Shown here one piece after another: positions 9,217-60,816 of a DNA stretch of 64,000 nucleotides; position 1 is the stretch's first letter, and each line of letters begins with the position of its first letter. The stretch spans positions 686,041-750,040 of the forward strand of contig CBDCUW010000004.1 of NCBI GenBank assembly GCA_965222745.1, given 5' to 3'. The notes beneath the pieces are model-generated. The model did no database searches. It had not been told where the DNA came from and saw only the letters and a program-made list of their open reading frames with translations. The stretch is from Rubripirellula sp. GTDB lineage: Bacteria > Planctomycetota > Planctomycetia > Pirellulales > Pirellulaceae. A program made the translations under genes and the position numbers.

Positions 9217-9536
9217 GTCTCAAACTGCTCGAACATGGCTGCAACGAAGGCTTTGACCGCGGAGGTCATTTCCACTTCGATTTCGGGTGGGATTTTTGTC
9301 TTCGTCATAGCCAACCCAGACCGAATCCACCCCGGTCGTGTCGAGACAGATTCTCCATTTCCCCAGTCCGGCCCGTGAACAGTTACCCAATCAACCTGTG
9401 CTGTCACCGGCCTAACGAGATACCCGACTTAATCTTCATTCCCCATAGTCCTTTTCCCTGCTTAGGTAGTTGCAACCGAATTTTGTGGTCGCTATGGTTT
9501 CATTGGCGGAGGGCTTGACCTTGCCAATGTGGGGGT

Positions 9537-10835
9537 TTGTGGCATGGGGAGCGGTCGCAAGTGAAGCAGTTAGAACTAACCTTTCGTGTCGTGACACCTT
9601 CTTTCTTGGGTGGCGCCCAACACCGCGTGGAATTCCGTTTGGCCAGTTTCAAGGGTGCGTTGCGATTCTGGTGGCGCTCGTTGCACGGAAATCTCACTAC
9701 GGCGGAGCTACATCGAAGAGAATTTGCGATCTTTGGTTCCAGCAGCCAAGGCACGGGAAGGTCGCGGGTGAGGCTGCGTCTGGTCGATATCGATCCGGCC
9801 GAGCCCCAAGTGATGAAAGCCGGTGATATACTTTGGAAAGAAGGTGGCAGCAACAAGCGGTTCAAGTCCGCTTTCTATCTCGGTTACGGATGCCTCAAAG
9901 CGTTTGACAGTAACCCAGACAATGGTCCTGCTACTAAATCGGGCCAGCTGGAACGCGAGTGCACGATGCCTCATACATTTACGGTCCGTGTTTCGTTCGC
10001 CCCAACGCTTTCACGTTCTCAAGTCGAATCGGTCGAAAATGCTCTTCGGTTACTTGGAACCGTCGGCGGGCTGGGCGGCCGAGCACGTCGTGGCTGGGGC
10101 AGTCTAACCTTGATTGGCTGGAAACGACCGGGGGAATGTGATGGTGCGCAACCGCAACTTGTCTCGGATAACGACCCCCTGAGTTCATTGCGTCGTCTGA
10201 CCGGCAATGATCGATTGAGTTCGCAGCGTACCGAATCCACATCCGCCTGCGACTCACGTCTCCCTGCGTGGACTGCATTGACGAGCCTCTCGCGTGTCAT
10301 CGCGTTGAAGACGTCTATCAAAGATCCTCGTCTCGTGATGAAACACCTGGGCATGGAGTTCGTCCGCTTCCGTGGCTATGGGAAGAAAGGGATGGTAATG
10401 GACGGACCTCGCGAGCAAGTGTCTGGCAAGGCACGCTTCCAAGATGATCACGACTTGTTTCGTCGGACGCAGTCTGTCCCGATCGATCATCCCCGGCGTG
10501 TCGTTTTTGGATTGCCGCACAATTACGGACAAGTCCCCTCGCAGCATTGCGAGCCGATGGATTTTGAACGCCGTGGCAGCCCACTCTTCTTCCATCTTCA
10601 TCAGACGCAGGAGGACCAAGGTGTTACAGTGGTGCTACTGTTTTTGCCATCCCTCTACCTGCCAGCGGGAAAAGGTTCAAATCCTCAGTTGAAGGCCTTT
10701 GGACGAACAGTCGGCCTCGCCACTTCGATCAGTTTTTGGGACCCCGTTCACGACTTCCTGGACCGGATGTCTGGCAAAGGCGGTCAAGACAATCACGCCT
10801 GCACGGAGCTGAGAAATGCGGAGGTGGTGTCATGA
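9537..10835 (+). CDS. cmr1: Type III-B Cmr1 (RAMP)
   Basis: The N-terminus LELTFRVVTPSFLGGAQ...EFRLASFKGALRFWWRSL matches the Cmr1 RAMP signature (TPlfiGG...sSlKGalRfw). It is the first gene of the cmr operon and starts at a TTG/GTG. Confidence 0.7.
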   Translation: MWHGERSQVKQLELTFRVVTPSFLGGAQHRVEFRLASFKGALRFWWRSLHGNLTTAELHRREFAIFGSSSQGTGRSRVRLRLVDIDPAEPQVMKAGDILWKEGGSNKRFKSAFYLGYGCLKAFDSNPDNGPATKSGQLERECTMPHTFTVRVSFAPTLSRSQVESVENALRLLGTVGGLGGRARRGWGSLTLIGWKRPGECDGAQPQLVSDNDPLSSLRRLTGNDRLSSQRTESTSACDSRLPAWTALTSLSRVIALKTSIKDPRLVMKHLGMEFVRFRGYGKKGMVMDGPREQVSGKARFQDDHDLFRRTQSVPIDHPRRVVFGLPHNYGQVPSQHCEPMDFERRGSPLFFHLHQTQEDQGVTVVLLFLPSLYLPAGKGSNPQLKAFGRTVGLATSISFWDPVHDFLDRMSGKGGQDNHACTELRNAEVVS

Positions 10836-12877
10836 CGCAGAAGTTCGAAGACGTCTTTCGATTGTCGTTCGCAGTCGGTCCAGTTCAAACCTTTGTCTCC
10901 CAGTCGCGACGGACGCGAGATCTCTGGTCCGGCAGCTGGCTACTCTCCTTCCTGTCGGAAACCGCCTTGGCAAAAGCGGAACAGACCGGGGGACATGCGA
11001 TCATTCCGTACCGGCACGAACACGAACGGTGCAGGTTGACTTCCAGCCGTTCAGCGATTGGGGGAATCCCGAATCGTTTTGAAGTCTCGTTTGGGAATCA
11101 GCAGCTCGCCGAACGGACTGGTCACGAGTGTGTTGCTACGTTTAGGCACAGCTGGGAAACGATTGCAAACTGCATTTTCGAGAAGTACTTCCACAACGAT
11201 GTATTGGAAAAAGGGAGCCAAACCAAATCAATATGGGATCGTCAAATCTCTGATTTTTGGCAGCTATCGTGGATCGTCTCCAAAACACCGGGCCCACGCA
11301 AATTAGCGGGACTGCCACTCAGTGAACGAAAGCACTTTCGCAACGTGCCAGCATCAAACGAACCTGGCACAAAGTGTTCAATGGTCACGAGCCTGCAGGA
11401 ACTTTCTGGTTGGTACGGGCGAGGAAACTGGACAAAACAAAGCGAGTTTTGGAGACAGCTAGGCGGCAAGCTCAGCGGCCTGGATCTGGGGGATCGCGAA
11501 ATGTTGTCCGCGGTCGGATTCGTTAAACGCATGTTTCCCGAAGTCGTTGATCTTTGCCTTCGTCGTTTTTCAAATGCGTTGCCTGACGGAACTCGTTTCG
11601 AAACGATATCACCGGAAGGTGATCAGGACGCGCTTCGCCATCAGGCACGCTGGCCGTCGCTTGCATTTCTCGCCGCTCTGCCGTGGATGCAAGATGTCAA
11701 TGCAAATCCTGACACGGCTGGCGAAGCGAAGAGAATCACTGCGAAAGCGATTCGCAAATCGCACAGAGATGAGAATGGTTACTGGGAATCCGAAGAGATT
11801 CCCAAAAACGACTTCGGCTTGGGCGATTGGGCGCGCATTGATGCCCCCGTCTGGTTTACGAGCGGATTGAACGCCAACAGTCCCGGATTGCCTGAGAATC
11901 GACTTTCCGAGCTGAAGAATATTCAAATCCGTTTGCACAGTCTGGCTGGCTCGAAACCAGTGCCAAGCTATGCCTTGTTGCTGGCTGACGGTGACTCCAT
12001 GGGGAATTTGCTCGGCGTGATGGATGATCCCACACGACTCAGCGAATGCCTGGGCCGGTTTTCGACCGGGGTCAGCAAGATCATCTGCCCCGAGAACCGA
12101 AACGGACGAGTCGTCTACGCTGGCGGCGACGATGTCTTCGCACTACTCAGTGCGGAAACAGCGCTGGCGGCGGCCGATCAACTGCGCCACGCCTATGCGG
12201 ATGCCTTTGTGGACCAAGGCGTTGATCTTCAAGCGACCCTTTCGGTGGCTATTGTTTACGCTCATTGGCGATACCCGTTGAAGCAGGTCATCCGTTTTGC
12301 TCATCAATTGTTGGATGACGTCGCGAAAGATCAGACCGGCCGGGATTCACTTGCAGTAGCAGTTTTGCAGGGCGGTGGTCTTCGTTCGATTTGGTCAGCT
12401 CCCTGGAATGTGATTCGCGGCAAACGTGACGGCTGTGTTTCATTTGATAGCCTGATCAACCGATTTGCCACTGCTGACGATGAACTGTCGCAATCAGAGA
12501 GTGCTGCAATCAACAGCAGCTTTCTTTACAGCCTTCGAAAGCAGTACTCCGCGTTAATGCCTAACGCTTCGGATCTCCCTGGGAAATACCAATCCGTCGC
12601 GGAAGCAACCAAGGGGAGCGTAGATGCAATCAATCTGTTGCAGTCCATTGCCCATAGTGAATACCGACGACGACTGACACCCTCTGGGCGTTTGAGCAAT
12701 CACCGCGAGGCAACCGAAAAATATATCAACGAATTGATGACGCTTTGCCACCCCTGGCAAAGGGACAACGAAGGCGCCAGCCATTCCGACTCAAACAAGT
12801 TTAGTTTTGACGGTTGGAAGATTGCTCGTTACTTGAAACAGGTCAAGGAGAAACAGGTAGTGGATCATGAGTGCTGA
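10832..12877 (+). CDS. cas10: Cas10/Cmr2, HD-less form with intact GGDD cyclase motif
   Basis: The N-terminus begins directly with the conserved FAVGPVQTFVSQSRRTRDLWSGSWLLSFL block, with no preceding HD domain. VVYAGGDDVFAL (GGDD palm motif) is present. Start set at the internal MTQKF Met, which avoids overlap with cmr1. Confidence 0.85.
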   Translation: MTQKFEDVFRLSFAVGPVQTFVSQSRRTRDLWSGSWLLSFLSETALAKAEQTGGHAIIPYRHEHERCRLTSSRSAIGGIPNRFEVSFGNQQLAERTGHECVATFRHSWETIANCIFEKYFHNDVLEKGSQTKSIWDRQISDFWQLSWIVSKTPGPRKLAGLPLSERKHFRNVPASNEPGTKCSMVTSLQELSGWYGRGNWTKQSEFWRQLGGKLSGLDLGDREMLSAVGFVKRMFPEVVDLCLRRFSNALPDGTRFETISPEGDQDALRHQARWPSLAFLAALPWMQDVNANPDTAGEAKRITAKAIRKSHRDENGYWESEEIPKNDFGLGDWARIDAPVWFTSGLNANSPGLPENRLSELKNIQIRLHSLAGSKPVPSYALLLADGDSMGNLLGVMDDPTRLSECLGRFSTGVSKIICPENRNGRVVYAGGDDVFALLSAETALAAADQLRHAYADAFVDQGVDLQATLSVAIVYAHWRYPLKQVIRFAHQLLDDVAKDQTGRDSLAVAVLQGGGLRSIWSAPWNVIRGKRDGCVSFDSLINRFATADDELSQSESAAINSSFLYSLRKQYSALMPNASDLPGKYQSVAEATKGSVDAINLLQSIAHSEYRRRLTPSGRLSNHREATEKYINELMTLCHPWQRDNEGASHSDSNKFSFDGWKIARYLKQVKEKQVVDHEC

Positions 12878-14069
12878 GCAATGGTGCCAGATGCGTGCCG
12901 TTGATGCGTTGTTTTTTCGTGATGGCACGCCCTTCAATCGCGGTGAAGATCATGGTGACATCAGCAGTGTGTTTCCGCCCGTGCCGCATACACTTTCGGG
13001 AGCGATGCGTTTCGCGTTGGCCCGCGCCAACGGTTGGAGCGGAAAAGGATCATGGTGTGAACAACGTGACGATGCTGGACGCGATTTTGCCGAGACTTTA
13101 GGAGACGGGCCCGACGACCTTCGTCAGCTAAGATTCTTCGGCCCACTGTTGGCGCTTGATCGTGAATCCGATACCGGCACGTCACGACGGTCTCTCCGGC
13201 TGTTCTTTCCCATGCCTCGGCATGTGATTGGTTTCACCGAACGATACGCGGATGGATCTGCCCCCACCTTTCATCCAGATGATTGGTTGGTTCCTGGGGA
13301 GCCCCGATACAGCGATGCCTGCGACAAGCCCGTTGCATTTCCAACACCGGCGACCCGACGCGAAAAACCTCCTTTTGCAGAGCCCACCGATGAATTTTTT
13401 GTCGCGATGGAGGGCATGCAGCAAATCGCTTCAGGATGTTTGCCCGCATCCGACGAATGCCTCCACCGCGATCATCTCTTTCAGTCGGAACCGCGCGTGG
13501 GCATCGCTAGGGAACGTGGTCTGCGTACCGCCGAACATGGCGCGCTTTACAATCCGAGCTTCATTCGCACGACCGACGCTCTGTCTATTCTCTACTGTCT
13601 CCGCGGAACACCGGACGGATGGAGAGTTCCATCAACGATCGCGCTCGGGGGTGAGTCGAGAATGGCTTCACTTGAAAGATTACCCGAGAGTGATGATCCA
13701 CGTATTCCGTGCTACCAACCAGCCTCGTCGGATCGTGTCGCGTTGGTCTTGTTGACACCGGCTTTGTTCGAATCGGACGCCACGAACCAGCCAGACGATA
13801 AATCCACCCATTGGTTCGGTGCAGGCCCCGGCCAATCGGCCAGGCGGCTCGACCCCGCGTTTTCGGGAAACGTCGTCACAACGTCGATCAATCGCCCGCA
13901 ATTCATTGGCGGTTGGAATGCACTGACCGGTGGTCCTGAGCCGTTACGCCCCTATGCGCCGGCGGGAACCGTGTGGTGGCTGGACAACATACCTGCCAAG
14001 CCAGGACCATTCCAAATCGGACGTCGCACCGAACACGGCTACGGTTTGGCCATCTGTTGCAAGGTATGA
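12867..14069 (+). CDS. cmr3: Type III-B Cmr3
   Basis: The N-terminus AVDALFFRDGTPFNRGED...VFPPVPHTLSGAMRFA matches the Cmr3 signature (DpLFFRDGrPF...fPP.PsTl.GalR). Confidence 0.75.
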   Translation: MSAEQWCQMRAVDALFFRDGTPFNRGEDHGDISSVFPPVPHTLSGAMRFALARANGWSGKGSWCEQRDDAGRDFAETLGDGPDDLRQLRFFGPLLALDRESDTGTSRRSLRLFFPMPRHVIGFTERYADGSAPTFHPDDWLVPGEPRYSDACDKPVAFPTPATRREKPPFAEPTDEFFVAMEGMQQIASGCLPASDECLHRDHLFQSEPRVGIARERGLRTAEHGALYNPSFIRTTDALSILYCLRGTPDGWRVPSTIALGGESRMASLERLPESDDPRIPCYQPASSDRVALVLLTPALFESDATNQPDDKSTHWFGAGPGQSARRLDPAFSGNVVTTSINRPQFIGGWNALTGGPEPLRPYAPAGTVWWLDNIPAKPGPFQIGRRTEHGYGLAICCKV

Positions 14070-14114: not shown

Positions 14115-15053
14115 ATGAAAACAAATCTGTACGGATTATTAGCCGAAACCGCAATACATCCCGGCGCCGGACAAGACGCCGGGTTGATCGATTTGCCCGT
14201 AGCCCGTGAACGTATTACCGATTTCCCGGTCGTCGTTGGGAGTTCGCTAAAGGGGGCGTTACGAGACCAATTGTTCTGGCAAGATTACAAGGACCCCACG
14301 TCGCAACCTGGGTTCAGTCAGTTGGACGAAGAACAACAGCACCATCAAAAAGCGGATTCCCGACGTCAAGTCGACCGGACGCTCGCACCAATATTTGGGG
14401 CCCAGGGGAACGAATCGGCTGGCGCCGGAGGTATCCTGGTCTCTGATGCACGGTTGCTTCTCTTGCCGATCCGAAGTCTGACGAGCCACTATTATTGGAT
14501 CACTTGCCCTTTGATCTTGGAAAGGTTCGTTCGAGATCACAAACGAGCAAATTTTGGTGATGTGGACATTCCAGCATTGACGCTTTCACCACAACAATTC
14601 GCGGGGCTGACTACCGACGACTCGCCTGCGATGATCTTTCTGGAAGAGCTTCAGTTTGCGAGGAACGCTGATCATGATCAGGAAAATACAACTTCTGTGA
14701 AAGCAGCGATCGAGCTGATTCGGCCATTGATTCGCCATGCAGCCACCGCCCAGCGTTTGGAAAGCCAATTGGTCATACTTTGTGACGAAGACTTTACGTG
14801 GTTCGCGCGATACGGTTTGACGGTCACGGCGCGGAACGTGCTAGATCGAGAGACGAAGGCGAGTAAAAACCTATGGTACGAAGAAACCTTGCCAAGTGAT
14901 TCCCTATTCTATTTCAGTGTCTCGGAGCGCAATTCTGGAACGTTGAGTGATTTCGACGATCGGTTTTGCCGGTCTCACTATCTTCAGGTTGGAGGAAATG
15001 AAACGGTTGGGCAAGGTTGGTTCGTCACTCAACGCGTTGACTTCAATCAATAG
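14115..15053 (+). CDS. cmr4: Type III-B Cmr4 (backbone RAMP, target-RNA cleaving subunit)
   Basis: LLAETAIHPGAGQDAGLIDLPVARERITDFPVVVGSSLKGALRDQ matches the Cmr4 consensus, including the catalytic Asp in IDLPV and the G-rich loop. Confidence 0.85.
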   Translation: MKTNLYGLLAETAIHPGAGQDAGLIDLPVARERITDFPVVVGSSLKGALRDQLFWQDYKDPTSQPGFSQLDEEQQHHQKADSRRQVDRTLAPIFGAQGNESAGAGGILVSDARLLLLPIRSLTSHYYWITCPLILERFVRDHKRANFGDVDIPALTLSPQQFAGLTTDDSPAMIFLEELQFARNADHDQENTTSVKAAIELIRPLIRHAATAQRLESQLVILCDEDFTWFARYGLTVTARNVLDRETKASKNLWYEETLPSDSLFYFSVSERNSGTLSDFDDRFCRSHYLQVGGNETVGQGWFVTQRVDFNQ

Positions 15054-15064
15054 GCAGGATTCCG

Positions 15065-15505
15065 ATGCAAACTGTTGAACAGAAACGTGCCGCCGACGCG
15101 GTGCGTAAGATCCAAGGAATGATCAATAGCAATCGCGACTATGGGCATTATGTTTCGTATGCATCCGCGCTTCCCGCGCAGATTGTCAACAATGGGCTTG
15201 GCCAAGCGATCACGATGCTGTGTGCCGCCGCGGGCCGAAAGACGATCCCCCACGAGGATCCACACTACTTTTTGGCCGACCACGTCGCCAGTTGGTTGGC
15301 CGAACAGATTCAAGAACTGAGACCAACTGATGGCGTGAACCATCCCGTCCAAGTCGTCCAGCGTCTGGCCGAAGGCAATCAGAAACAATATTCGCGCGCG
15401 ACGGCCGAGGCGGTTGCGTATCTGAATTGGCTCAAGAGGTTTGCACGCGCCATGCTCACTGAGCCAGGGGAAACCCCGGATGGATCGGAGAATACGAATG
15501 TCTAG
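15065..15505 (+). CDS. cmr5: Type III-B Cmr5 (small alpha-helical subunit)
   Basis: 146 aa, with the LPAQIVNNGLGQAITML motif typical of Cmr5 (LPamIrtnGL.qalaf). Confidence 0.7.
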   Translation: MQTVEQKRAADAVRKIQGMINSNRDYGHYVSYASALPAQIVNNGLGQAITMLCAAAGRKTIPHEDPHYFLADHVASWLAEQIQELRPTDGVNHPVQVVQRLAEGNQKQYSRATAEAVAYLNWLKRFARAMLTEPGETPDGSENTNV

Positions 15506-16841
15506 CGTTCCTTCACGCCCCATCTACCGTACCCGAGGCGAAATTCCCCAGTTGACCAAGATACGGCGAAACGGAAACTTCGGGTTGTTCTTCAACAAGT
15601 TTCCCGATCACTGGGGAATGAAAAAGGATAATCAAGTAGACAAAATCGCGTTCGATCCGGGAAAAACGGAAAGCAACAAAAAGAGTTGGTTGCGAAAAAT
15701 CGCGGGAAACCATCCGCGCGATCGCAAGGCGGACAGCCCATCACAGGCAGTTGGAAACTCGGACGCGATACAAGAGTCTGCGGAACGGCTTTATTGTTTG
15801 ATTGAAAGTCGGGGGGGCAAAGTCTTCGCCATCGAAAACCGGTCTCGATTCTTAACTGGTGCTGGGCTCGAACACCCAACGAGAAATGGGATGCTGTTGC
15901 ATCCGACGCTGGGTGTACCCTTCATCCCCGGCTCCACCGTAAAAGGAGTTCTCAGCGCATGGAATTGGCAGACACTGTGGGCAGACCACGTCGGAGAGGA
16001 CGGAGAATACGACGATGATCGACGCAGAACGCACGACGCGGCGTACATCAGTGAATTCGGCCGTTTATTGGGAACGACGGGGCAGGTCGGCGGAATCCAA
16101 TTCACCGACGTACTGCCAGTCCGAACGGTCGAATTAGATGTCGAGATTCTCACCCCGCACTACGGCAAATACTATGCATCTAACATTGAAGCAGCGGATG
16201 GAACCGGCCAGGAGGCGACCTCGAACAATCCAAACGCATCAACAATCCCCAGTCCCGGCGACTGGCATAGCCCCCTTCCGGTTGAATACCTGGTCGTCGC
16301 CGCCAAACAGGTTTGGGTTGGCGGAATCATTCCCTCCCCTCGCACAAATGCACCCTCCCTTAACGAAGTGCTGGATCTTCTCCGACAAGCGATCGAGGAA
16401 CTTGGCATTGGAGCAAAGACGGAAATCGGTCTTGGGGTTTTTGAATTCTTGGAAAATGCGACCGACCATCGTCCCGACTTCTTGAGCAAGGCGGCGAACA
16501 GTGCTAGCGCTAGGCCGATGGTGGAGAACCTTCAACAGCCTTACGACGATTCCGACCTACAGGTAAAAGCCATCATTGGGGATGGGGGCGATGACCCCAA
16601 CAGTCGGCCTCAGGCGATTCTGCGGTTTTACGATTTACTCTCGGAATCGGGCGACACGTTGTCGATCGACGCCGCACGTTGGATCTGTTCACAGTACCTT
16701 GGGGACGCAGTGATTAAGGCATTACCCCAAGGTGCCGAAACGGCAGCAAAGAAAAAGAAAAAGCTAAAGCAAAAGAAGGATTTGCTGGAAAAGTTTCTGC
16801 CCGTCATTGAGGCGATCATCGAGACGGCGTCACGGGAATAA
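15501..16841 (+). CDS. cmr6: Type III-B Cmr6 (RAMP)
   Basis: GLFFNKFPDHW and LHPTLGVPFIPGSTVKGVLSAW are RAMP motifs characteristic of Cmr6. Start set at the internal Met MSSVPS, which abuts the cmr5 stop. Confidence 0.75.
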   Translation, partial: SSVPSRPIYRTRGEIPQLTKIRRNGNFGLFFNKFPDHWGMKKDNQVDKIAFDPGKTESNKKSWLRKIAGNHPRDRKADSPSQAVGNSDAIQESAERLYCLIESRGGKVFAIENRSRFLTGAGLEHPTRNGMLLHPTLGVPFIPGSTVKGVLSAWNWQTLWADHVGEDGEYDDDRRRTHDAAYISEFGRLLGTTGQVGGIQFTDVLPVRTVELDVEILTPHYGKYYASNIEAADGTGQEATSNNPNASTIPSPGDWHSPLPVEYLVVAAKQVWVGGIIPSPRTNAPSLNEVLDLLRQAIEELGIGAKTEIGLGVFEFLENATDHRPDFLSKAANSASARPMVENLQQPYDDSDLQVKAIIGDGGDDPNSRPQAILRFYDLLSESGDTLSIDAARWICSQYLGDAVIKALPQGAETAAKKKKKLKQKKDLLEKFLPVIEAIIETASRE

Positions 16842-16844
16842 GAC

Positions 16845-17558
16845 ATGATTCAGCGACGAAGTTTGTGGCAACACAATCGAGGCTGGATTCTTTTTGCAAT
16901 CCATCGGCAGCGAATTCTGCTGGTCGCCAATGCCGTTGTCATCTTGCTGGCAGTGATTTTCGTTCGAACATCCCCTGCATTGGCGCAAAACGCCCAACAA
17001 TGGTGGTCTTCCGTCAATACTGTGTTGGGAATCGGCGCGTTATGCGGAACGCTGCTTGTGTGGCAGAACCAGGCCCGGCGCGAGTGGCGTGAAAGCTTGC
17101 CCCTTCGGTTAACGGTGGTTTACTTTTACGAACCTGAAAACCACCTAGAGACCGACGGGAACGGGCAGCGCCCCGTGATGGCGTGCGTCGACGCCCCACT
17201 GGTTGACTCAAGCGATATCAGGGCGATGGCGCAACAACTCGGTTCCCAATTGCTGTGGCCCAATTCGGGGCATTCGGAATCAACGTCAAACAATGCGACT
17301 CGCCGGTTGTCTCTCAAACCAAAGTATCATGTCAAACCGTCGGTGATCGACTATGACGAGCAAGTTGTTCGGCACTCCATTGCGATGTTCATTGATCGCC
17401 TGCCCGAGGGCTGGCCAATTCCGCTGCCAGAGAATCATGGACTGATTCGCGACCCGAGCGTCGCGCAGTGGGAAACTCAGCTTTGTGAGGATATGCCGGA
17501 GTACATGAAGAAACTAATGGACAAGAAGCGGTGGAACGATGTCGACTTACACGATTGA
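16845..17558 (+). CDS. Uncharacterised 2-TM membrane protein encoded within the cmr operon
   Basis: Two N-terminal hydrophobic helices (ILLVANAVVILLAVIFV, VLGIGALCGTLLVW) precede a ~150-aa soluble domain. The gene starts 4 nt after the cmr6 stop and overlaps the next gene. Confidence 0.4.
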   Translation: MIQRRSLWQHNRGWILFAIHRQRILLVANAVVILLAVIFVRTSPALAQNAQQWWSSVNTVLGIGALCGTLLVWQNQARREWRESLPLRLTVVYFYEPENHLETDGNGQRPVMACVDAPLVDSSDIRAMAQQLGSQLLWPNSGHSESTSNNATRRLSLKPKYHVKPSVIDYDEQVVRHSIAMFIDRLPEGWPIPLPENHGLIRDPSVAQWETQLCEDMPEYMKKLMDKKRWNDVDLHD

Positions 17559-17847
17559 AGTTGAGGTGCAAACAGATAAAGAAGTGTTGCTCAAGGTCAG
17601 TTTCAGCGAACAGGCTGACAACACGCAAATTGTCGTCGATGCAAAAGTGGCCATCGAAGCACTCGGGCTTCAAGGTGGCAGATTGGTAAAGTTCAACGGT
17701 GCGGCATCGTTGCCGGTGGCGATGGTGATGTGCCACGCGGTGGCGCATCTCTTTGGTGCCGTCGCGGTTTACGATCCCAAACTCGCAGGATACGTGGTGT
17801 GCGTATCGCATTCGCCCGAGCACAGAGTGGGTGAGTTGATTGATTGA
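17539..17847 (+). CDS. Csx3-like small protein (candidate cyclic-oligoadenylate ring nuclease Crn3)
   Basis: 102 aa. The C-terminal block GAASLPVAMVMCHAVAHLFGAVAVYDPKLAGYVVCVSHSPEHRVGEL resembles the Cas_csx3 family core (R-A-P-x-W-L...vAVyDPrl..yVVv.sH) as I recall it from memory. It is the last gene before the CRISPR leader. Confidence 0.45.
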   Translation: MSTYTIEVEVQTDKEVLLKVSFSEQADNTQIVVDAKVAIEALGLQGGRLVKFNGAASLPVAMVMCHAVAHLFGAVAVYDPKLAGYVVCVSHSPEHRVGELID

Positions 17848-18156
17848 CGGAAATCAGCGATTGGAGTTTGTTTTGCGCGCCCGGTTGGGTTTCGATTCGA
17901 GCCCACATCTATAAGTCGCGAGACAGCAGCCCGCCAAAGTGGGGCGCGTCGCGAACCGTCTGATGCTTCGAAGGGAACCACGACCGCAGTCAGAGTTTGA
18001 CGCGGTGAGAAATTCGAAGCCGTTTGCCACCGGCAGTGTCAGGCTGGAGTGGGGTCTAAACCAACTAACCAATTGCCTTCACCAAAGAAACAGCCATAAA
18101 TCCTTTTCCAATATCGACTTCCGCGATACACTACGCATGTGCCCCCTAAATAGGCG
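17848..18156 (+). promoter_or_regulatory. Putative CRISPR leader / array promoter region
   Basis: ~310-bp non-coding stretch immediately 5' of repeat 1. Repeat orientation (3' end ATTGAAAC gives the crRNA 5' tag AUUGAAAC) implies plus-strand transcription from this side. A degenerate repeat lies at the opposite end. Confidence 0.4.
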
Positions 18157-19960
18157 GTCACAGAATGAGGGTCAGCTGACTCGATTGAAACAAAAAAAGA
18201 ACAAAAAAAAAGAAAAAGTTCACTGGTTTTTGTCACAGAATGAGGGTCAGCTGACTCGATTGAAACAAGCATGTTGCAAGGGCGGAGATGGCCGAAGTCA
18301 CGTCACAGAATGAGGGTCAGCTGACTCGATTGAAACGCACAAACTGGCTCCATCAGAATCGACAAAAAGTCACAGAATGAGGGTCAGCTGACTCGATTGA
18401 AACCTCAAGAGCCAGGCTCAGAACACGGGCCATTTCGTCGTCACAGAATGAGGGTCAGCTGACTCGATTGAAACTATGGTCACCCAAATCTGATTCCATC
18501 AGCTCTCGGCGGGTGTGTCACAGAATGAGGGTCAGCTGACTCGATTGAAACTATTTATACTCTGTTGCCTCTTTCTCCTTGGTAAAAAGTTTCCGTCACA
18601 GAATGAGGGTCAGCTGACTCGATTGAAACAGCCGAAGCCAGAACGCCATTCCATCACTTGCCGAAAGAAGTCACAGAATGAGGGTCAGCTGACTCGATTG
18701 AAACCTTCCCCGAGACCATGGCTCCAGCACGTCCACTGCTGGATGTCACAGAATGAGGGTCAGCTGACTCGATTGAAACCTTCAGGCGTTGTGCCTTCAG
18801 ACTCGGTCAAAATCCCTCGTCACAGAATGAGGGTCAGCTGACTCGATTGAAACGTCAACCCGCTTGCGAGCATTGGCAAGCATGCTCTCAAAGGTCACAG
18901 AATGAGGGTCAGCTGACTCGATTGAAACAGCCCACTGGGCACCAGGATGACCGACATCGCCGTAAAGGCAGTCACAGAATGAGGGTCAGCTGACTCGATT
19001 GAAACTCCTCTTTTTCCCAGTGAAACCCTCTGGGGGAAATTGGTCACAGAATGAGGGTCAGCTGACTCGATTGAAACCTTGGATGACTCGCTTGCCATCC
19101 ATACTTTCTTTTTCTGTCACAGAATGAGGGTCAGCTGACTCGATTGAAACCATTGCGGTCAGACGGAGACTCCTCCGAGACACGCTTGTCGCCAGCGTCA
19201 CAGAATGAGGGTCAGCTGACTCGATTGAAACGTTTTTTCTTTCGCCTTTTATTTAGTTTTCTTCGTCACAGAATGAGGGTCAGCTGACTCGATTGAAACT
19301 TCTTGCCTTCGCCCCAAGTTGCTGGATCAATCTTGTCGAGTCACAGAATGAGGGTCAGCTGACTCGATTGAAACGCCTTCCTGCTTGTTTACGCATGTAA
19401 AGTCTATTCTGCCGTTGTCACAGAATGAGGGTCAGCTGACTCGATTGAAACCGACGGGTACGCAAGGGGATATGGTTCTCAATGAGAGACCAGTCACAGA
19501 ATGAGGGTCAGCTGACTCGATTGAAACGAGCAGAAGCAAAACCTGTCGGGCTTCCGCCAGCTGGAAGTCACAGAATGAGGGTCAGCTGACTCGATTGAAA
19601 CAAGATGTGCCTGACAATCATTCTCACCGTCTTGATGAGAGTCACAGAATGAGGGTCAGCTGACTCGATTGAAACGTAGTCTGATTGACCCTGGAATAGA
19701 TAAGCAGCAGGTCACAGAATGAGGGTCAGCTGACTCGATTGAAACTCGAACTGTGTGTTCCATTCATCAACTGTAGAGTAGGGGTCACAGAATGAGGGTC
19801 AGCTGACTCGATTGAAACGAAGGGTTGCCATCTTCTTCCTTTGGGGTGGAAGTCACAGAATGAGGGTCAGCTGACTCGATTGAAACCCAGGGGTTTTCGG
19901 TGGATGGCAGATCTCGTTTGCCGGGGTCACAGAATGAGGGTCAGCTGACTCGATTGAAAC
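18157..19960 (+). CRISPR. CRISPR array, 25 x 35-bp direct repeats GTCACAGAATGAGGGTCAGCTGACTCGATTGAAAC, 24 spacers (32-46 bp)
   Basis: All 25 repeats are perfect. Repeat starts are 18157, 18232, 18302, 18369, 18440, 18517, 18595, 18670, 18745, 18819, 18894, 18971, 19043, 19116, 19197, 19265, 19340, 19417, 19493, 19567, 19641, 19711, 19784, 19852 and 19926. A probable degenerate terminal repeat sits at ~20002-20040. ORFs called across the array (e.g. 18515-18841) are translation artefacts. Confidence 0.97.
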
Positions 19961-20293
19961 CAACGGAATGTTCATATTTTGCCAAGACATCTGCGATGAT
20001 TGTCACAGTAGTAGATCACAAGTTGCAGAATCTCGATAAGTTGGCTCCACTGTATGCTCCCACCGCCGGTTTTGCCGGGGAAGCCTGGCCCTACGTTGGT
20101 TGGACCGCTGATATTCCTATCAAACTTTAGCGAAGATCGTTGGTCGTGATTCGACGATTGCGAATCTGATTGTAGCTTTGGCGACAAGCAAACGCGCCAG
20201 GCTCCCGAATCTCGGCATGGTGCGGCTCGCTACGATCTGGTTTAAATTGGGTAGCGTACCAGTCAACACCCACCACCTGTAACGGAGGAGGAA

Positions 20294-20566
20294 ATGCCTG
20301 AATACGTGATCGCCTATGATGTGCACGATGACCGCCGAAGAGAACGGATCGCGCGAGTCTTATCGCGATATGGGGAGCGAATTCAGCGGTCGGTCTTTGT
20401 CGCTTTTTTGGACAGCGAAGAGCACCTGGAGCTTCGAATTGAATTGGGTGAACACCTGCGGGTTAACGATCAGCTAGAATTCTTTCCCGTTGACGCTCGT
20501 GCAAAGGCAAAGCACGTTTCTTGGCATGATGATCCTCACGTCGGACTTACCGTTCGAGTCGTCTAG
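20294..20566 (+). CDS. cas2: Cas2
   Basis: 90 aa. MPEYVIAYDVHDDRRRERIARVLSRYGERIQRSVFVAFL matches the Cas2 consensus (vlVtYDV..dkRR.kv.k.L..yG.RvQ.SVFec). Confidence 0.8.
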   Translation: MPEYVIAYDVHDDRRRERIARVLSRYGERIQRSVFVAFLDSEEHLELRIELGEHLRVNDQLEFFPVDARAKAKHVSWHDDPHVGLTVRVV

Positions 20567-20633
20567 CCTCGTTTCCGCGTTGCGCCATATTCTACTGCTC
20601 GAATCGATCTCGACGATTCCACATCCATTTGCC

Positions 20634-21998
20634 ATGCCTGACCAAGCAGATTCCGACACCCGCCAAGCAGACCCCCCAAAATCATCTGGCGATCAATCCC
20701 TGAACTCGGGATCGGAAACGCGTCACCCGGAGATCGTTCCATTTGAATTGAGTTCTGAAAATGCAAAATCAGGATTTCCTCGATGGTTCGCAGTGTATTT
20801 TTTGATCACGTTCACGGCCGTCCATATCGTTGCATTTGAAATCTGGCACCTCTTTATCCAGCCACATCCACTCATCGCGTTTGGGTGCTGGATCTGCGCT
20901 TTGGTCGTGTTTGCGTCGGTGGCATATCACATGTACGTCCACCGCTTTGGGCATCAAACAATAGCGAAAAGAATGTGTCTGAGCCTATCAATCGGCGTGG
21001 CGGGTTTGTTCATCGCTTTTGGTTCTCATGACGGCATGACGTTTTGTTCGAACGCGTTGTTTGCCAATCACTCTCAGCCAGAACACGAGGAAGTGGAGAG
21101 CAAAAACGACACCGAGATACTTCAAGAGCCTGGGGAGAATCATCAAGATTCATCTCACGAGACACACCATGCGCCGGGCTTGGCGGAATGGACGCGCCTT
21201 GTGGTTGCGATTTGTATTGCGGTGACCGGCTTGTGCTATCTTGAAAACGAGCACCATCACTTACCCGAAAAGCGTCTTGTGGAGCATCCGGCAATCGTCG
21301 ATGGCGTCCGGAAGCCGGGTAGCGGCGAACCAATCAAGCATTTGGTGATCCCACTGACAGCTCCGAATTGGGTGCCAGATTGTCGAGAGGGAAAAGCTGG
21401 TTTTCCAACCAAAGACAAGAACGACAAACCCCTCTATCTGGAGTGCAAAGATATTACAGCCGACATTGCGCTCCTCAACGAATTGCCGTTCAATTGCAAT
21501 TGGCAACAACTCTTGCGGGCGATCCAGCCTCACCTTGGGTCACTAGAAAGCATTTGGTTGTTTGGCTCCAACGGCGAGATGGATCAGCAGACCCGCGTGC
21601 CTGGCCCTGTGCCCTACCGAGAGTCTGTTGCAGGCGGCTCAGCTGGATACGTCCGGCTCGCCACATCATTCATTGCCCCCTATCTGCGCGACGAGACCCA
21701 AATTTTCGTCTTTGAGAACCAGGGGGCCGAGAAGTTGCGATTTCAGGATTACGCAAATGTGGATCAAACGATCCGACTTATCTTAAGGGAGATAAACTCA
21801 CGTTTTGCTGTTAGGGAGGCACAGATTGCCATTGATGCAACGGGCGGGCTGAAAACTGTTAGTATTGTGGGTGCCGCCGCGACGTTCAATCGAGAAGCTT
21901 GTTTTCAGTACGTTGATTCAACTGCTGGCCAGCAAAGCCGAGTCTTGATCTACTCCATTCGTAATGAGCATGACCCGAAGAGCGACTGGAGTGCATGA
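20634..21998 (+). CDS. Membrane-anchored CARF-domain protein (4 predicted TM helices + C-terminal CARF), candidate cOA-gated membrane effector
   Basis: Four TM helices are predicted. The soluble C-terminal domain has the CARF beta1 motif KHLVIPLTAPNW and the hallmark IAIDATGGLKTVSIVGAAAT (DxTGGxK) motif. The gene sits between cas2 and cas6-RT-cas1. Start moved to the internal Met (MPDQADS) to avoid overlap with cas2. Confidence 0.6.
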   Translation: MPDQADSDTRQADPPKSSGDQSLNSGSETRHPEIVPFELSSENAKSGFPRWFAVYFLITFTAVHIVAFEIWHLFIQPHPLIAFGCWICALVVFASVAYHMYVHRFGHQTIAKRMCLSLSIGVAGLFIAFGSHDGMTFCSNALFANHSQPEHEEVESKNDTEILQEPGENHQDSSHETHHAPGLAEWTRLVVAICIAVTGLCYLENEHHHLPEKRLVEHPAIVDGVRKPGSGEPIKHLVIPLTAPNWVPDCREGKAGFPTKDKNDKPLYLECKDITADIALLNELPFNCNWQQLLRAIQPHLGSLESIWLFGSNGEMDQQTRVPGPVPYRESVAGGSAGYVRLATSFIAPYLRDETQIFVFENQGAEKLRFQDYANVDQTIRLILREINSRFAVREAQIAIDATGGLKTVSIVGAAATFNREACFQYVDSTAGQQSRVLIYSIRNEHDPKSDWSA

Positions 21999-24870
21999 CC
22001 AGATGGGGCCTCTTTTGGACGGTGAATTATGCAGCTTTCCAACAGTTGTCATGCGGATTGGGCTGCAACTGCGATTAAAGGCACCGCGCCGCATCGCACC
22101 GCATCAGGCTGCGCTGGTGTACGCGCTGTTGTGTAACGCATACGGAACTCGCAACGATACCAAACCGGGCATGCCCGATGGAATCCTTCTAGATGCGCCG
22201 GACCAGGGATTGCGTCATCTAGGACCGGACAGCCCACTAACGATTGGTCTAACCACTGCATGTCCCTCCATCATTCACGCTCACCAAACACTAGAGCATC
22301 TAGTCGAAGGATTGCGGATGATCGGGCGACGGCCGACACCGGATCAGCGTTTGGGAAAGTATTCAATCGATTCGATCGAGGACTTGATCCAAAGAAAGGC
22401 CATTCAAACGGCACAGTTGGCGAGGGCGCTGAGCGACGATCACCTTCAGGAAGAATTTCGCACTTTGGGGAACGACTCCAGGTTAACGCTAAGATTTGTC
22501 ACTCCACTGCGCTGTTCACGACCAAAGACCAAGAAACGCGAAGGTCACGCCTTCTTTGACGAAACTTATTTCTCCGCGACTTCTTTCCTCAGTCGGACCA
22601 AGAGGCGGTTGTGCAATCTCGGTTGGCCGATCGAACAAAAAGAACTTCAAATGTCCAAACAAAGAAGTTCCGCCATCGTTGAAGAAAATCGTTTGGTCTG
22701 GCTTGATATCGGTTATGGGAAAAAGGGAGGCAAGAAGACACTTGGGGGTGCGGTTGGCGAGATCGTTCTGGGCCAGGTGAACGAGTTGGAAAAGCTTGCG
22801 CTCGTTTTGGGGCAATACTGCCGGGTTGGGGAAGGCACGAGGTTTGGTTTTGGCCACTACCGAATTACTGAATTGGGGCCGGACCGATACCGCGTTCAAA
22901 GGAGCCAATCGCTCGTCGAACGCGCCATTGGTGAATTGACCGCAGCACAGTCTGAGAAAATCGCAACCAAATTAAATCTTGGTTCCGGAATTTTGACCGC
23001 AGCACTCCAACAAGTTCGCTGTGGTCAATACGACTGCCAACCGCATTACCGCGTTCGAATCCCCAAGCACGACGACGGGTTTCGCGTCCTGTCCATCCCA
23101 ACAGCAAGAGACCGTGCCACACAGCAAGCCGTGTTGCCCGTGCTCGCAGACGGGATCGATGGATTTTTGGAATCGTCCGCCATGGCGTACCGCAAGGGTT
23201 TTGGACGTCAACAAGTAACCAAACGCATCAAGTGGGCGACGCGAAACGGGTTTCTTTGGGGAGTAAGAGCGGACTTTCTGGGGTTCTTTGATCACGTCGA
23301 CCATGCTTTGTTGCGTCGTCGGTTGGAGGCCTACCTTGCCGATCCGGTAACGGTTGACTGGATCATGGACTGTGTTTCGGCGGGCGCGCCGACCAAGGAC
23401 TGTGGATTGCCCACCGGATCACCACTGTCCCCGGCGCTAGCCAACTTATTCCTGGATCAATTTGACGAACAGCTTTGTCCGAACGGTTCGATACTGATGC
23501 GCTACGCCGACGACTTGTTAGTCCTTTGCAAGTCAAAAGAGCAAGCGGCGTCCATCATGCGACGTGCAAAGGAAGAGGCCAGTCACCTCTTGCTGGAGCT
23601 GAATCATGACAAGTCTCAGACGTTTGGCGCCGAAGATGACTTCCAGTTCCTCGGGTTTCAGTTTTTCCGTAGTGCTAGGGCTGATTCAAACGAGGCTTCT
23701 TGGGAAAACAGGTGTCAGCATGACGAACCCGCACTGGTTCACGACATCATGTGGACGACGGCAAAAACGGAAGTCAAGAAATCGAATTCACGTTACGCAC
23801 TGCCGGGCGAAAGTGAACTTGATACAGCATCGCGGCAGGCGCACCTGATCGCGGGTCCGGATGTTTCGGAGGTCGCACGTGACGGAAACTCGATTATCTT
23901 CCACAAGCGTGTCGGCCCTTCCGATCGAATCAAAGTTGCTGGTATTCGCGATATGACGATTATCGGAAAACCAAAGATCCATTTTCCCGGATTGGACCCA
24001 ATCGTGAACGCAGGAGGGACTGTCTGGTTTCTTGAAGACACCGGACGAGTTCACGCTCAATTGGCGCCGAAACCGTCCTCTGCGGATGCTGCGGGATTGC
24101 AGGCTCAAGTTGGACTATCTGACGACATAAGTCGCAAGCTGCGAATTTGTCAAACTCTCATTGCCAGCAAGATTTGCAACTACGCCGCGTTGTGGCGCAT
24201 CCTTTGGACGCACCAGCATGCTTCCGAACGCAAGCTTCAACAGTTGGCAACAAAGGTGCTGGAGGCAGATTCCGATCAGGAACTGTTGGGTTATGAGGGT
24301 GCTGCAGCAGCAATCTGGTATGGACAATTTTCATCCTGTTTGGGCCGCGGATTCGAATTTAAACGGCGGGTTGCGCCCGATGCGTGTGACCCGGTCAATG
24401 TGCTGCTCAATTTCGGCCAAACGATTCTGCACAGGATGTTGATTCACTGGATCGAACACGCGCGGTTGTCACCGATGCTGGGGATCTTTCACCACAATCG
24501 TTCAGGACATGCAACGCTCGCCTCGGATTTACAGGAGCCATTTCGCCACTTGGTCGATTTGGTTGTGATTGAAACCACCCATGAGCTACGCCAGTCGGAC
24601 TTTTTGCATGATTCCGACGGGCCCTATCCGCTTCGAATAAGGCCTCGGGCACGAACCACTTTTCTCACCAAATTACACCGGCGACTGATGCAATCCGTGG
24701 CAGGACAGGATCAACATTACCCGGCAAATTACCATCATCAGATGAGATCACTCGCTCGTCAGCTAAGACGCTATCTGATGTGTACGAGCGAAGAGTTGAT
24801 TGGATTTTGGCACCCTGGGAGTCTTGCCCAATTGTGCTTGGAGAAGATTCGCAAACGCGCACCCAAATAG
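21964..24870 (+). CDS. cas1: Cas6-reverse transcriptase-Cas1 triple fusion (RT-Cas1 adaptation protein)
   Basis: The N-terminal domain ends with a G-rich loop (GYGKKGGKKTLGGAVGEIVLG...GEGTRFGFGHYRI), consistent with Cas6. The middle domain has group-II-intron-like RT motifs, including RYADDLLVLC (YADD). The C-terminus NVLLNFGQTILHRMLIHWIEHARLSPMLGIFHHNRSGHATLASDLQEPFRHLVD matches the Cas1 core (NalLnygY...G..p..G.lH...al.lDlmEpfRp.vD). Confidence 0.85.
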   Translation: MSMTRRATGVHDQMGPLLDGELCSFPTVVMRIGLQLRLKAPRRIAPHQAALVYALLCNAYGTRNDTKPGMPDGILLDAPDQGLRHLGPDSPLTIGLTTACPSIIHAHQTLEHLVEGLRMIGRRPTPDQRLGKYSIDSIEDLIQRKAIQTAQLARALSDDHLQEEFRTLGNDSRLTLRFVTPLRCSRPKTKKREGHAFFDETYFSATSFLSRTKRRLCNLGWPIEQKELQMSKQRSSAIVEENRLVWLDIGYGKKGGKKTLGGAVGEIVLGQVNELEKLALVLGQYCRVGEGTRFGFGHYRITELGPDRYRVQRSQSLVERAIGELTAAQSEKIATKLNLGSGILTAALQQVRCGQYDCQPHYRVRIPKHDDGFRVLSIPTARDRATQQAVLPVLADGIDGFLESSAMAYRKGFGRQQVTKRIKWATRNGFLWGVRADFLGFFDHVDHALLRRRLEAYLADPVTVDWIMDCVSAGAPTKDCGLPTGSPLSPALANLFLDQFDEQLCPNGSILMRYADDLLVLCKSKEQAASIMRRAKEEASHLLLELNHDKSQTFGAEDDFQFLGFQFFRSARADSNEASWENRCQHDEPALVHDIMWTTAKTEVKKSNSRYALPGESELDTASRQAHLIAGPDVSEVARDGNSIIFHKRVGPSDRIKVAGIRDMTIIGKPKIHFPGLDPIVNAGGTVWFLEDTGRVHAQLAPKPSSADAAGLQAQVGLSDDISRKLRICQTLIASKICNYAALWRILWTHQHASERKLQQLATKVLEADSDQELLGYEGAAAAIWYGQFSSCLGRGFEFKRRVAPDACDPVNVLLNFGQTILHRMLIHWIEHARLSPMLGIFHHNRSGHATLASDLQEPFRHLVDLVVIETTHELRQSDFLHDSDGPYPLRIRPRARTTFLTKLHRRLMQSVAGQDQHYPANYHHQMRSLARQLRRYLMCTSEELIGFWHPGSLAQLCLEKIRKRAPK

Positions 24871-30098: not shown

Positions 30099-30938
30099 TT
30101 GTTCTTTCTAGAAAAAACGGATTTGTGGCATGGGAAAGCGCCCCGCATGGGGGAGAAAATTCGCCATGCTATTACCTTGGACGAGCCTTCCTTTCTCCCT
30201 CTCGATGCAGTGGCCGGCGGATCGGTGCCAGAATCACTCCTTCAAATCGCCGAACGAATGTTTGTCGGTCCGTTGTGGCCGGCATCGATTCTCGTTTGCC
30301 TGCTGGTGCTGTACACGCTCATTGCGCTGATCGGTTTGGTCGACTTCGGGTTCGATGTGCCCGACCTTGATCTTGATGTCGATCCGGGGGTGGACCTGGA
30401 TGTTGATTTGGGGGTGGATGCTCCCGACGTGGACGCCGGGGCGCACGTCAACGCTGATTTTCTGGGAGGCATTGCCGGGCTGACGGTTCGGTGGACCAAT
30501 TTTGGACGAGTCCCGATTGTTTTGTGGGGCGGGATCTTTTCGGTCGCGTTTTGGGCTGTGTCGTATTACCTGTGGCACACGTTCGATTCGCGAAAATACG
30601 ATCCCGTTTTATTACCCAGCGTGTTGCTATCGATCCGCAACCTGGTGATCGCCACCGGCATCACCAAAATGATCACGCAACCGATGCTGGGCCAGTTCAC
30701 TGAACCACCGTCGTACGATCAACATAAGTTGTTGGGTGCGACCTGCGAAATCTGTACCACCGAAGCGACGCCCGAATTTGGCCAAGCCAAGTTTCGCACC
30801 AACGCTTCACCGCTGCTGTTGAACGTCCGTACCGACGGACCTCACATCCCAAAGGGAACAGAAGTTCGCATCATTGGTTTCGATAAAGAAAAACGAATTT
30901 ACAAAGTCACTCATCTTCAACCGGAGACACAGTCGTGA
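30099..30938 (+). CDS. NfeD-like membrane protein (partner of flotillin)
   Basis: TM helices plus a C-terminal beta-barrel segment (GATCEICTTEATPEFGQAKFRTNASPLLLNVRTDGPHIPKGTEVRIIGFDKEKRIYKV) typical of the NfeD OB-fold. It lies immediately upstream of, and overlapping, the flotillin gene. Confidence 0.5.
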   Translation: MFFLEKTDLWHGKAPRMGEKIRHAITLDEPSFLPLDAVAGGSVPESLLQIAERMFVGPLWPASILVCLLVLYTLIALIGLVDFGFDVPDLDLDVDPGVDLDVDLGVDAPDVDAGAHVNADFLGGIAGLTVRWTNFGRVPIVLWGGIFSVAFWAVSYYLWHTFDSRKYDPVLLPSVLLSIRNLVIATGITKMITQPMLGQFTEPPSYDQHKLLGATCEICTTEATPEFGQAKFRTNASPLLLNVRTDGPHIPKGTEVRIIGFDKEKRIYKVTHLQPETQS

Positions 30939-33067: not shown

Positions 33068-33164
33068 GCGGGACATGTTGTCGGGGAAAGCCGCGCCAAC
33101 GGCGCGGCATTGCCCTCGGCTTGAGAATGAAACTCAAACCACACTTCACCCGCCGCCACCTGTC

Positions 33165-60568: not shown

Positions 60569-60816
60569 CCCTTCTGCAGGGTGGTATCGAATCGTCTCTG
60601 GCCACCGGAATGCGGGATTGTTTGGCTCCCGACGCGTTTGTTCTTGGTGCTGCTTCTCATCGGACTATTCTGAACAGACACCGACAAGTCGCTCTTCGCG
60701 GCAACCTTGAATCATTGACAGGGGCAACTATGACGCCTTTAATTGAGGTTGCTTGGGTCATTGCGCCCATTTTGCACTTGTTCCTTTTCTCGTTAAGTTT
60801 TCATGAGGCTCATAAC

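Follow-up and report, generated by a model that had tools for sequence, protein, structure and literature searches.

A four-transmembrane CARF protein as candidate cA4-gated membrane effector of a type III-B CRISPR-Cas locus in Rubripirellula sp.

Introduction

Membrane-acting CARF effectors of type III CRISPR-Cas systems have been characterized only recently, and three gating solutions have been described for them, those of Cam1, Cap1 and Chp1. Here, we analyze a gene for a protein with four transmembrane (TM) helices and a CARF domain (4TM-CARF), located in a stretch of 64,000 nucleotides from Rubripirellula sp. (GenBank assembly GCA_965222745.1, contig CBDCUW010000004.1, positions 686,041 to 750,040 of the forward strand). 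This whole stretch is referred to as the window, and coordinates without further specification are positions within it. An initial annotation, made from the sequence alone, had proposed that the protein is a membrane effector gated by cyclic oligoadenylate (cOA).

Cam1 from Nitrosococcus halophilus (PDB 8T64-8T66) is a protein of 206 amino acids with one TM helix carrying a conserved pore-lining Asp (D17 in NhCam1). Cyclic tetra-adenylate (cA4) binds its CARF dimers and a tetrameric pore has been modelled, the outcome being depolarization and growth arrest (PMC10808066). Cap1 has two TM helices and is tetrameric, a single cA4 per tetramer widening the pore. Its sensor is a compact 'CARF-like' domain of about 134 amino acids with a mixed β-sheet and bears the ligand motif R(X3)QQ(X10)L in its first helix; Cap1 often comes with a DUF4579 in addition (bioRxiv 10.1101/2025.11.13.688252). 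Chp or Chp1, the CRISPR-associated HAD phosphatase, has been described from BbChp and PsChp (Nucleic Acids Research 2025, PMC12715507; bioRxiv 10.64898/2026.08.05.743128); in the structure solved in the 2026 preprint, cA4 binds CARF dimers within the tetramer and a central pore opens (bioRxiv 10.64898/2026.08.05.743128). All three proteins bind cA4, are tetrameric or modelled so, depolarize the membrane and arrest growth, and each of them acts alone in a heterologous host. Two further points of reference are Csx23, a membrane effector of type III systems in which TM helices at the N-terminus precede a domain that binds cA4 in the cytoplasm (PMC11014256), and a 'TM+CARF' cluster catalogued by Shah et al. 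in 2018 (PMC6546367).

Results and discussion

A predicted four-helix membrane protein with a CARF domain

The product of the gene is almost certainly a CARF-containing membrane accessory protein of a type III-B system. It is read as a membrane CARF effector because of its predicted fold, its matches to TM+CARF profiles and the conserved type III context of its relatives. This evidence supports the core of the initial annotation, namely a cOA-responsive effector of a cyclase-competent type III-B system without HD nuclease; as to the ligand and the formation of a pore, also part of that proposal, we infer them by analogy, as set out below. The gene and its domains are positioned as follows.

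20634..21998, + strand: 4TM-CARF effector gene, 454 amino acids, ATG at 20634, stop codon ending at 21998
20781..21254, + strand: membrane domain, with TM1 at residues 50-75, TM2 at 79-102, TM3 at 110-132 (the helix continuing to 146) and TM4 at 183-207
21327..21968, + strand: CARF domain, about residues 232-445, with strands at 236-241, 306-311, 356-362, 398-401, 423-427 and 437-444

The open reading frame (ORF) had been annotated with exactly these boundaries. A longer version begins with TTG at 20490 and runs into the 3' end of cas2. Likewise, P0001, the database entry of 490 amino acids, starts 36 codons upstream, within 20490-20633, and overlaps the end of cas2. We favour the ATG at 20634 because the closest full-length homologue, P0002, begins at the aligned 'MPD', which matches this codon. 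Judged by this alignment, the public annotation P0001 is probably too long at its N-terminus.

An AlphaFold2 model of the effector, built on 150 relatives, reaches a mean predicted local distance difference test score (pLDDT) of 82.6 and a predicted template modelling score of 0.79. The C-terminal domain is predicted to be Rossmann-like, with a six-stranded parallel β-sheet and flanking helices, as in a CARF domain. A fold search with Foldseek, the structural check that had been suggested for the CARF assignment, returns CARF structures including Cam1 and those of the Crn1 type. The top match is the cA6-bound form of Cam1, which is uninformative on ligand specificity, and fold similarity to Cam1 is no closer than to other CARF proteins. 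The two motifs that had been named as CARF signatures, KHLVIPLTAPNW and IAIDATGGLKTVS, are both present and lie in predicted β1 (236-241) and β4 (398-401) together with the ensuing loops. IPLTAPN follows β1, and its P244 is invariant in the 4TM subfamily. Between β1 and a near-invariant helix, WQQLLRAIQPH (290-300), a β-hairpin is inserted at 249-269. The second motif contains DATGGLK at 401-407, and conservation in at least 90% of the 150 relatives extends to D401, T403, G404, G405, K407 and S410 as well as to W290, R295, H300, G311 and S312.

Scans of the effector against Pfam and NCBIfam give zero matches. Over query residues of about 236-441, PADLOC models match on the other hand with E-values of 1.6e-16 (PDLC01053, 'TM+CARF'), 3.1e-15 (PDLC01168, 'CARF, 2 TMs'), 3.6e-14 (PDLC01940, CARF8--CARF_CSX16_TM) and 7.3e-10 (PDLC01947). 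We assign the effector to the CARF superfamily and, among the profile families catalogued so far, to those named TM+CARF (CARF8-type), the label 'CARF8' being taken from PADLOC model names only. Among the relatives, 43 of 150 match the Pfam CARF family HFX_2341_N, and others match Csa3_N, APE2256 or Card1 CARF.

The four hydrophobic helices of the initial annotation are borne out by the Kyte-Doolittle profile (segments at about 50-75, 78-103, 113-132 and 181-205) and by the AlphaFold2 model (helices 50-75, 79-102, 110-146 and 183-207). The loop between TM2 and TM3 carries two positive and no negative charges and that between TM3 and TM4 one positive and 11 negative charges, while the segment following TM4 contains five K/R. 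This charge distribution fits an N-in/C-in topology with a cytoplasmic C-terminal domain, which is also what hydropathy and the model predict. The TM2-TM3 connection is short, about 7-12 residues (YVHRFGHQTIAK), and centred on an invariant arginine, R104. Membrane-part positions conserved in the four-TM subfamily are F52, H64, W71, F93, R104 (17/17) and G124. The TM3-TM4 loop (residues 133-182; 21030-21179 in the window), predicted to be extracytoplasmic, comprises about 50 residues, among them 11 D/E, six H and one K, and may form a metal- or pH-sensitive element. In the closest full-length relatives, this loop is likewise long and of low complexity (rich in His in P0003); relatives fused to Csx3 have a much shortened loop or lack it. 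In the N-terminal tail, a strand at 33-37 (pLDDT of about 88) is conserved in position among relatives. No Pfam or NCBIfam domain is found in residues 1-49, and an HAD domain is absent from the effector and from the 150 relatives.

A family with several membrane architectures

A word-indexed homologue search returned only three and then six relatives, which made the effector look like an orphan. An exhaustive HMMER scan of 1.84 billion cluster representatives rules this out, with 1356 matches at E ≤ 1e-3, 708 at ≤ 1e-10 and 106 at ≤ 1e-30. Counted by hydropathy, the closest 150 representatives have two TM helices before the CARF domain in 79 cases, four in 28, three in 10 and one in 20; the three-TM class is probably an undercount of four, so that the four-TM total is about 28-38 of 150. 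Among the full-length relatives, this four-TM layout recurs for instance in P0002, P0003, P0008, P0009, P0010 (40% identity), P0014 and P0023. The initial annotation had regarded four TM helices as a different architecture from the known TM and CARF effectors. Given this share of the relatives, and a published protein, Chp, that combines an HAD domain, four TM helices and a CARF domain, that claim was overstated.

Twenty loci of relatives were searched by phmmer, using the Cas proteins of the window and ring nuclease domains as queries. The TM-CARF genes are located within sets of type III-B genes or next to them, and nearly all of them adjoin a gene for a cA4 ring nuclease.

A complete type III-B locus with a cyclase-motif Cas10

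In the window, the effector gene is part of a compact CRISPR locus, of which the following features were identified.

9537..10835, + strand: cmr1 (RAMP); Pfam RAMPs 1e-17, TIGR01894 Cmr1 3.4e-8
10736..12877, + strand: cas10/cmr2; Cas10-Cmr2_palm2 2.3e-30, Cmr2_N 3e-18, TIGR02577 7e-32; likely true start an ATG at about 10832
12867..14069, + strand: cmr3; Pfam Cas_Cmr3 3e-51
14115..15053, + strand: cmr4; TIGR02580 1.9e-51
15065..15505, + strand: cmr5; Pfam Cas_Cmr5 4e-28
15441..16841, + strand: cmr6; TIGR01898 7.7e-29
16845..17558, + strand: orf237, a family-less protein of 237 amino acids with two TM helices, followed by about 150 soluble residues at the C-terminus
17539..17847, + strand: csx3/crn3, 102 amino acids, cA4 ring nuclease family
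17848..18156, + strand: putative CRISPR leader, between csx3 and the first repeat
18157..19960, + strand: CRISPR array, 25 repeats of 35 nucleotides (GTCACAGAATGAGGGTCAGCTGACTCGATTGAAAC), from a repeat search and sequence reading
20294..20566, + strand: cas2; Pfam CRISPR_Cas2 2.5e-15, PADLOC Cas2 models
21964..24870, + strand: cas6-RT-cas1 fusion (RT, reverse transcriptase); Pfam Cas6 6.7e-7, RVT_1 8.9e-31, Cas1 2.7e-45, PADLOC Cas1_IIIb 6e-72

The set cmr1-6 is complete and its Cas10 carries the cyclase motif, as is characteristic of a type III-B system that signals through cOA. As had been noted, the GGDD motif is intact (ORF residue 463) and an HD nuclease is lacking, there being no 'HD' dipeptide anywhere in the protein. 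The family hidden Markov model (HMM) built from the 150 relatives, run against all window ORFs of at least 40 amino acids, matches the effector alone, and neither a second CARF effector nor a SAVED effector was found in the 64-kb window by this HMM and by Pfam scans of most long ORFs. The earlier statement that no soluble CARF nuclease is present thus holds within the window, but it had overlooked the Csx3/Crn3 gene at 17539-17847. Outside the CRISPR locus, the Pfam scans of most long ORFs across the 64 kb revealed housekeeping genes only.

The positioning of the effector gene between cas2 and cas6-RT-cas1, as originally described, is confirmed on both sides by Pfam and PADLOC matches. This placement might speak for a protein that couples cOA signalling to spacer acquisition at the membrane: the adjacency of cas2 and the 4TM-CARF gene is kept in the loci of the two closest relatives (L001 and L019), and the effector ORF overlaps the cas6-RT-cas1 ORF, as listed, by 35 nucleotides. 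However, in most other loci the effector gene follows cmr genes or a ring nuclease gene, and the protein shows no sign of an interaction with Cas1 or nucleic acid. We know of no precedent for such a role and consider it exceedingly improbable.

After the last spacer, at 20002-20040, a degenerate terminal repeat (GTCACAGTAGTAGATCACAAGTTGCAG...) is present; since it marks the distal end of the array, we place the leader on the side of csx3. An ORF of 124 amino acids at 17939-18313 was rejected as a gene, as it spans the putative leader and extends into the array. The leader-proximal spacer (18192-18231), presumably the newest in this array with its associated RT-Cas1, consists almost entirely of A (AAAAAAAGAACAAAAAAAAAGAAAAAGT...) and might have been acquired from an RNA rich in poly(A) or stem from an artefact of the RT.

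Just downstream of the CRISPR locus, on the + strand, three consecutive genes at 30099-38417 form a large, conserved-looking membrane/ATPase module, composed of an ORF with a very weak NfeD-like match (E 0.009), a 710-residue SPFH/Band-7 protein and a 1806-residue protein with DUF3686, DUF7902 and AAA ATPase domains. Two DUF1559 (SBP_bac_10) proteins with N-terminal methylation motifs are encoded at 41076-42410 and 60346-62088, a gene type typical of Planctomycetota and related phyla.

Ring nucleases point to cA4 as the likely ligand

The 102-residue ORF following orf237 matches PF09620 with 32.9 bits (cut-off 21; E 5.9e-8) and the PADLOC Csx3 models at 5.7e-17 and 2.3e-15, and it is found by phmmer with three Csx3 queries at about 1e-4. 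Moreover, an orthologue of it adjoins the closest effector homologue in L001 (4e-38). By these matches, the ORF is a Csx3/Crn3 family protein. Csx3/Crn3 and Crn2 are cA4 ring nucleases (PMC12409355), and Csx15 is cA4-specific as well (PMC13148439).

Among the relatives, Csx3 genes are found beside the TM-CARF genes in L001, L002, L005, L008/L018, L009, L011 and L017, Crn2/DUF1874 genes in L003, L010, L012 and L016, and a Csx15 gene in L019. In addition, some close relatives are fused to such enzymes: an N-terminal Csx3 precedes the four TM helices in P0012, P0017, P0018 and P0019, and an N-terminal Crn2/DUF1874 (STIV B116-like) precedes them in P0020. These adjacent and fused cA4-specific ring nucleases are the main argument for cA4, which is the likely ligand of the effector as far as gene pairing and fusions can tell. 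They also narrow the earlier proposal, which had left the choice between cA4 and cA6. A description of the ring nuclease-4TM-CARF fusion architecture was not found in the literature covered.

The same type of effector could respond to another messenger, be it cA3, cA6 or a nucleotide other than a cOA, and CARF-TM proteins responsive to cA3 do exist, in type II Panoptes (PMC13577387). Every ring nuclease family beside or fused to the relatives (Csx3, Crn2 and Csx15) is however cA4-specific, and a survey found no cA4 ring nuclease paired with effectors that use another messenger (PMC12409355), which makes a different ligand very unlikely.

A further possibility is that the protein is a membrane-anchored cA4 sink or ring nuclease, whose CARF domain slowly cleaves or sequesters cA4 and which thereby tunes signalling instead of being a toxic effector. 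When PDB sequences were searched with the effector by itself or with a four-sequence profile, the outcome was noise or a marginal Crn1 match. The 150-sequence profile, in turn, matched the ring nuclease Crn1/Sso2081 at E 0.0016, with the D-TGG-K-S motif aligned to DITGGRK, and nothing else of relevance, so that this is the sole significant PDB match of the family profile. The Crn1-type structures among the fold matches point in the same direction, and intrinsic ring nuclease activity is known from many CARF effectors (PMC12409355). Yet such a role would leave the window without an effector although its Cas10 has no HD domain, it would make the dedicated ring nucleases fused or adjacent to relatives redundant, and it offers no obvious use for a four-helix domain that is conserved across many clusters. 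Furthermore, the cited survey reads a high co-occurrence with extrinsic ring nucleases as a sign that intrinsic activity is absent (81% for Cam1; PMC12409355). We therefore regard a sink or ring nuclease as highly doubtful.

A conserved two-TM neighbour, orf237

The gene between cmr6 and csx3, orf237, has no match in Pfam, NCBIfam or PADLOC, and the word-indexed search returned only itself. A single-sequence model places TM helices at 5-42 and 44-84 (pLDDT 49.7, the remainder being unreliable). Homologues of orf237 (phmmer E 2e-9 to 5e-18; HMM E down to 1e-83) nevertheless adjoin 4TM-CARF genes in four other independent loci, which show three gene orders.

L007: Limisphaerales metagenome-assembled genome; homologue at 8582-9214 (E 5e-18); order orf237-like, 4TM-CARF
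L008/L018: Verrucomicrobiota metagenome-assembled genome (L008) and a metagenome contig of the same layout (L018); homologue in L008 at 10674-11099; order cmr..., csx3, 4TM-CARF, orf237-like
L017: metagenome contig; homologue at 8694-9431; order cmr..., csx3, 4TM-CARF, orf237-like
L019: locus of P0010; homologue at 11374-12009, - strand; order cmr6, csx15, orf237-like, convergent with cas2 and 4TM-CARF

The conserved core of these proteins reads W(R/K/S)(E/D)SLP.RL.V..(F/Y), followed by P.(L/I/M)VC and D(I/A)R(A/S)W.QQ(I/L)G. One homologue shows a very weak match to DUF4231 (E 0.049), to be taken as no more than a lead. On its flanks, the type III-B locus of P0010 (L019), the closest relative, has genes for a transposase and a tyrosine integrase as well as a relaxase-like gene (1-2444 and 20763-21377 of that locus), which suggests that the whole module, including the 4TM-CARF gene, csx15 and the gene similar to orf237, is carried by a mobile element.

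Orf237 may be part of the effector module, as a candidate partner of the 4TM-CARF protein, and it is the most novel element of the locus. In the strict form of this idea, the 4TM-CARF protein senses cA4 while the membrane-damaging or regulatory output needs orf237, which might join it in a hetero-oligomer or, as inhibitor or chaperone, hold the pore shut. The restriction of orf237 homologues to the neighbourhood of 4TM-CARF genes would fit, as would its two TM helices and the fact that no homologue was found beside the 2-TM relatives (L003-L006 and L009-L015). On the other hand, a 4TM-CARF locus with 10-kb flanks, L016, and an 8-kb contig, L002, are without an orf237 homologue, none of the three described effectors Cam1, Cap1 and Chp1 needs a partner in a heterologous host, and orf237 is without assigned fold or family. 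On balance, we judge a strict dependence on orf237 to be unlikely.

Proposed mechanism

The whole model that we favour, and deem rather probable, is that of a cA4-gated, oligomeric membrane-depolarizing effector of the type III-B system, in analogy with Cam1, Cap1 and Chp1. Binding of target RNA would activate the GGDD cyclase of the HD-less Cas10, resulting in the synthesis of a cOA, most likely cA4. This would bind to the cytoplasmic CARF domains, in CARF dimers within a homo-oligomer that, by the same analogy, is probably a tetramer. The conformational change could be relayed via the short linker after TM4 and the conserved N-terminal strand to the four-helix domain, where an ion-conducting path would open; the ensuing depolarization would stop growth until the invader is cleared. 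Csx3/Crn3, encoded after cmr6, would degrade cA4 and reset the system, and orf237 may serve as partner or modulator.

Several points weigh against this model. By sequence, no similarity to Cam1 is detected with HMMER, either at E ≤ 10 (single sequence and four-sequence profile) or at E ≤ 1 (150-sequence profile), and Chp1 and Cap1 were compared by description and not by sequence, so that the likeness to the characterized membrane effectors is limited to CARF fold and general topology. No conserved acidic TM residue is present in the four-TM subfamily, while Cam1 has its pore-lining D17. With Crn1 as the best PDB match, the protein may cleave cA4 itself or have a purely regulatory role. Another effector could sit elsewhere in the genome, outside the 64-kb window. 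Finally, the arguments for the ligand, the oligomeric state, pore formation and depolarization are arguments by analogy.

A more far-reaching proposal is that the 4TM-CARF protein and orf237 together constitute a type III-B module of a two-component kind that is as yet undescribed, reset by a cA4 ring nuclease, in which the His-rich loop, H64, W71 and R104 serve gating or conduction in a manner unlike that of Cam1, Cap1 and Chp1. This is a tentative idea, and we think it rather unlikely. Be it a subunit of the pore, an inhibitor or a factor conferring immunity, orf237 would widen the view of how type III membrane toxicity is controlled. The 4TM-CARF proteins fused to Csx3 or Crn2 would, for their part, be membrane effectors that limit themselves. 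Interest in this system lies mainly in the partner gene and in the fusions to ring nucleases. The compact organization of the locus, in which cmr1-6 are accompanied by one ring nuclease gene, an adaptation module with RT-Cas1 and just one effector gene, is convenient for reconstitution.

Comparison with known membrane effectors

The effector represents an HAD-less four-TM CARF subfamily, which is paired with or fused to ring nucleases and has a two-TM protein of no known class as conserved neighbour; neither this subfamily nor its orf237 partner was found described in the literature covered. The effector opens no new category of defence. Membrane-disturbing effectors have already been described.

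The catalogued TM+CARF and CARF8 CARF_TM families share with it the type III association and a CARF profile match of 1e-10 to 1e-16. They differ in that the names and lengths of the models point to smaller proteins bearing one or two TM helices or to fusions with Csx16, and the matches cover the CARF part only. The sensor of Csx23, of which a tetramer takes up one cA4, does not have a CARF fold, in contrast to that of the effector.

The CARF fold of Cam1 resembles that of the effector. With 454 amino acids and four TM helices, however, the effector is a different protein: it has no counterpart of the acidic TM residue, and its CARF domain is about 70 amino acids larger and contains the β-hairpin insertion. 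Cap1 is similar in being a TM and CARF-type effector of type III systems, and the near-invariant [R/N]xxWQQ..R...H of the family is found in the helix equivalent to that bearing the Cap1 ligand motif. Many relatives read R-x-x-W-Q-Q in this helix, whereas the effector reads N-C-N-W-Q-Q, with N at the first position and Leu at X11; none of the 150 relatives matches DUF4579, and the resemblance of the motifs may be coincidental. Features that set the effector apart from Cap1 are its four TM helices and its CARF fold, which is of the canonical type and includes DxTGGxK.

The effector is predicted to share the layout of Chp1, likewise a type III accessory protein: in both, the N-terminus lies inside, the membrane is spanned four times, and the C-terminus forms a CARF domain of about 220 amino acids in the cytoplasm. 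Chp1 differs from the effector by its N-terminal HAD domain, in place of which the effector has a tail of 49 amino acids with one conserved strand. Furthermore, TM2 and TM3 of Chp1 are connected by the 22-residue 'segment J', a loop-helix-loop that gates lipid fenestrations, while the corresponding loop of the effector counts about 10 residues. Conversely, the long acidic and His-rich loop of about 50 residues between TM3 and TM4 sets the effector apart from Chp1. Next to the three gating solutions described for Cam1, Cap1 and Chp1, the subfamily would represent a fourth form of membrane-acting CARF effector, HAD-less and with four helices.

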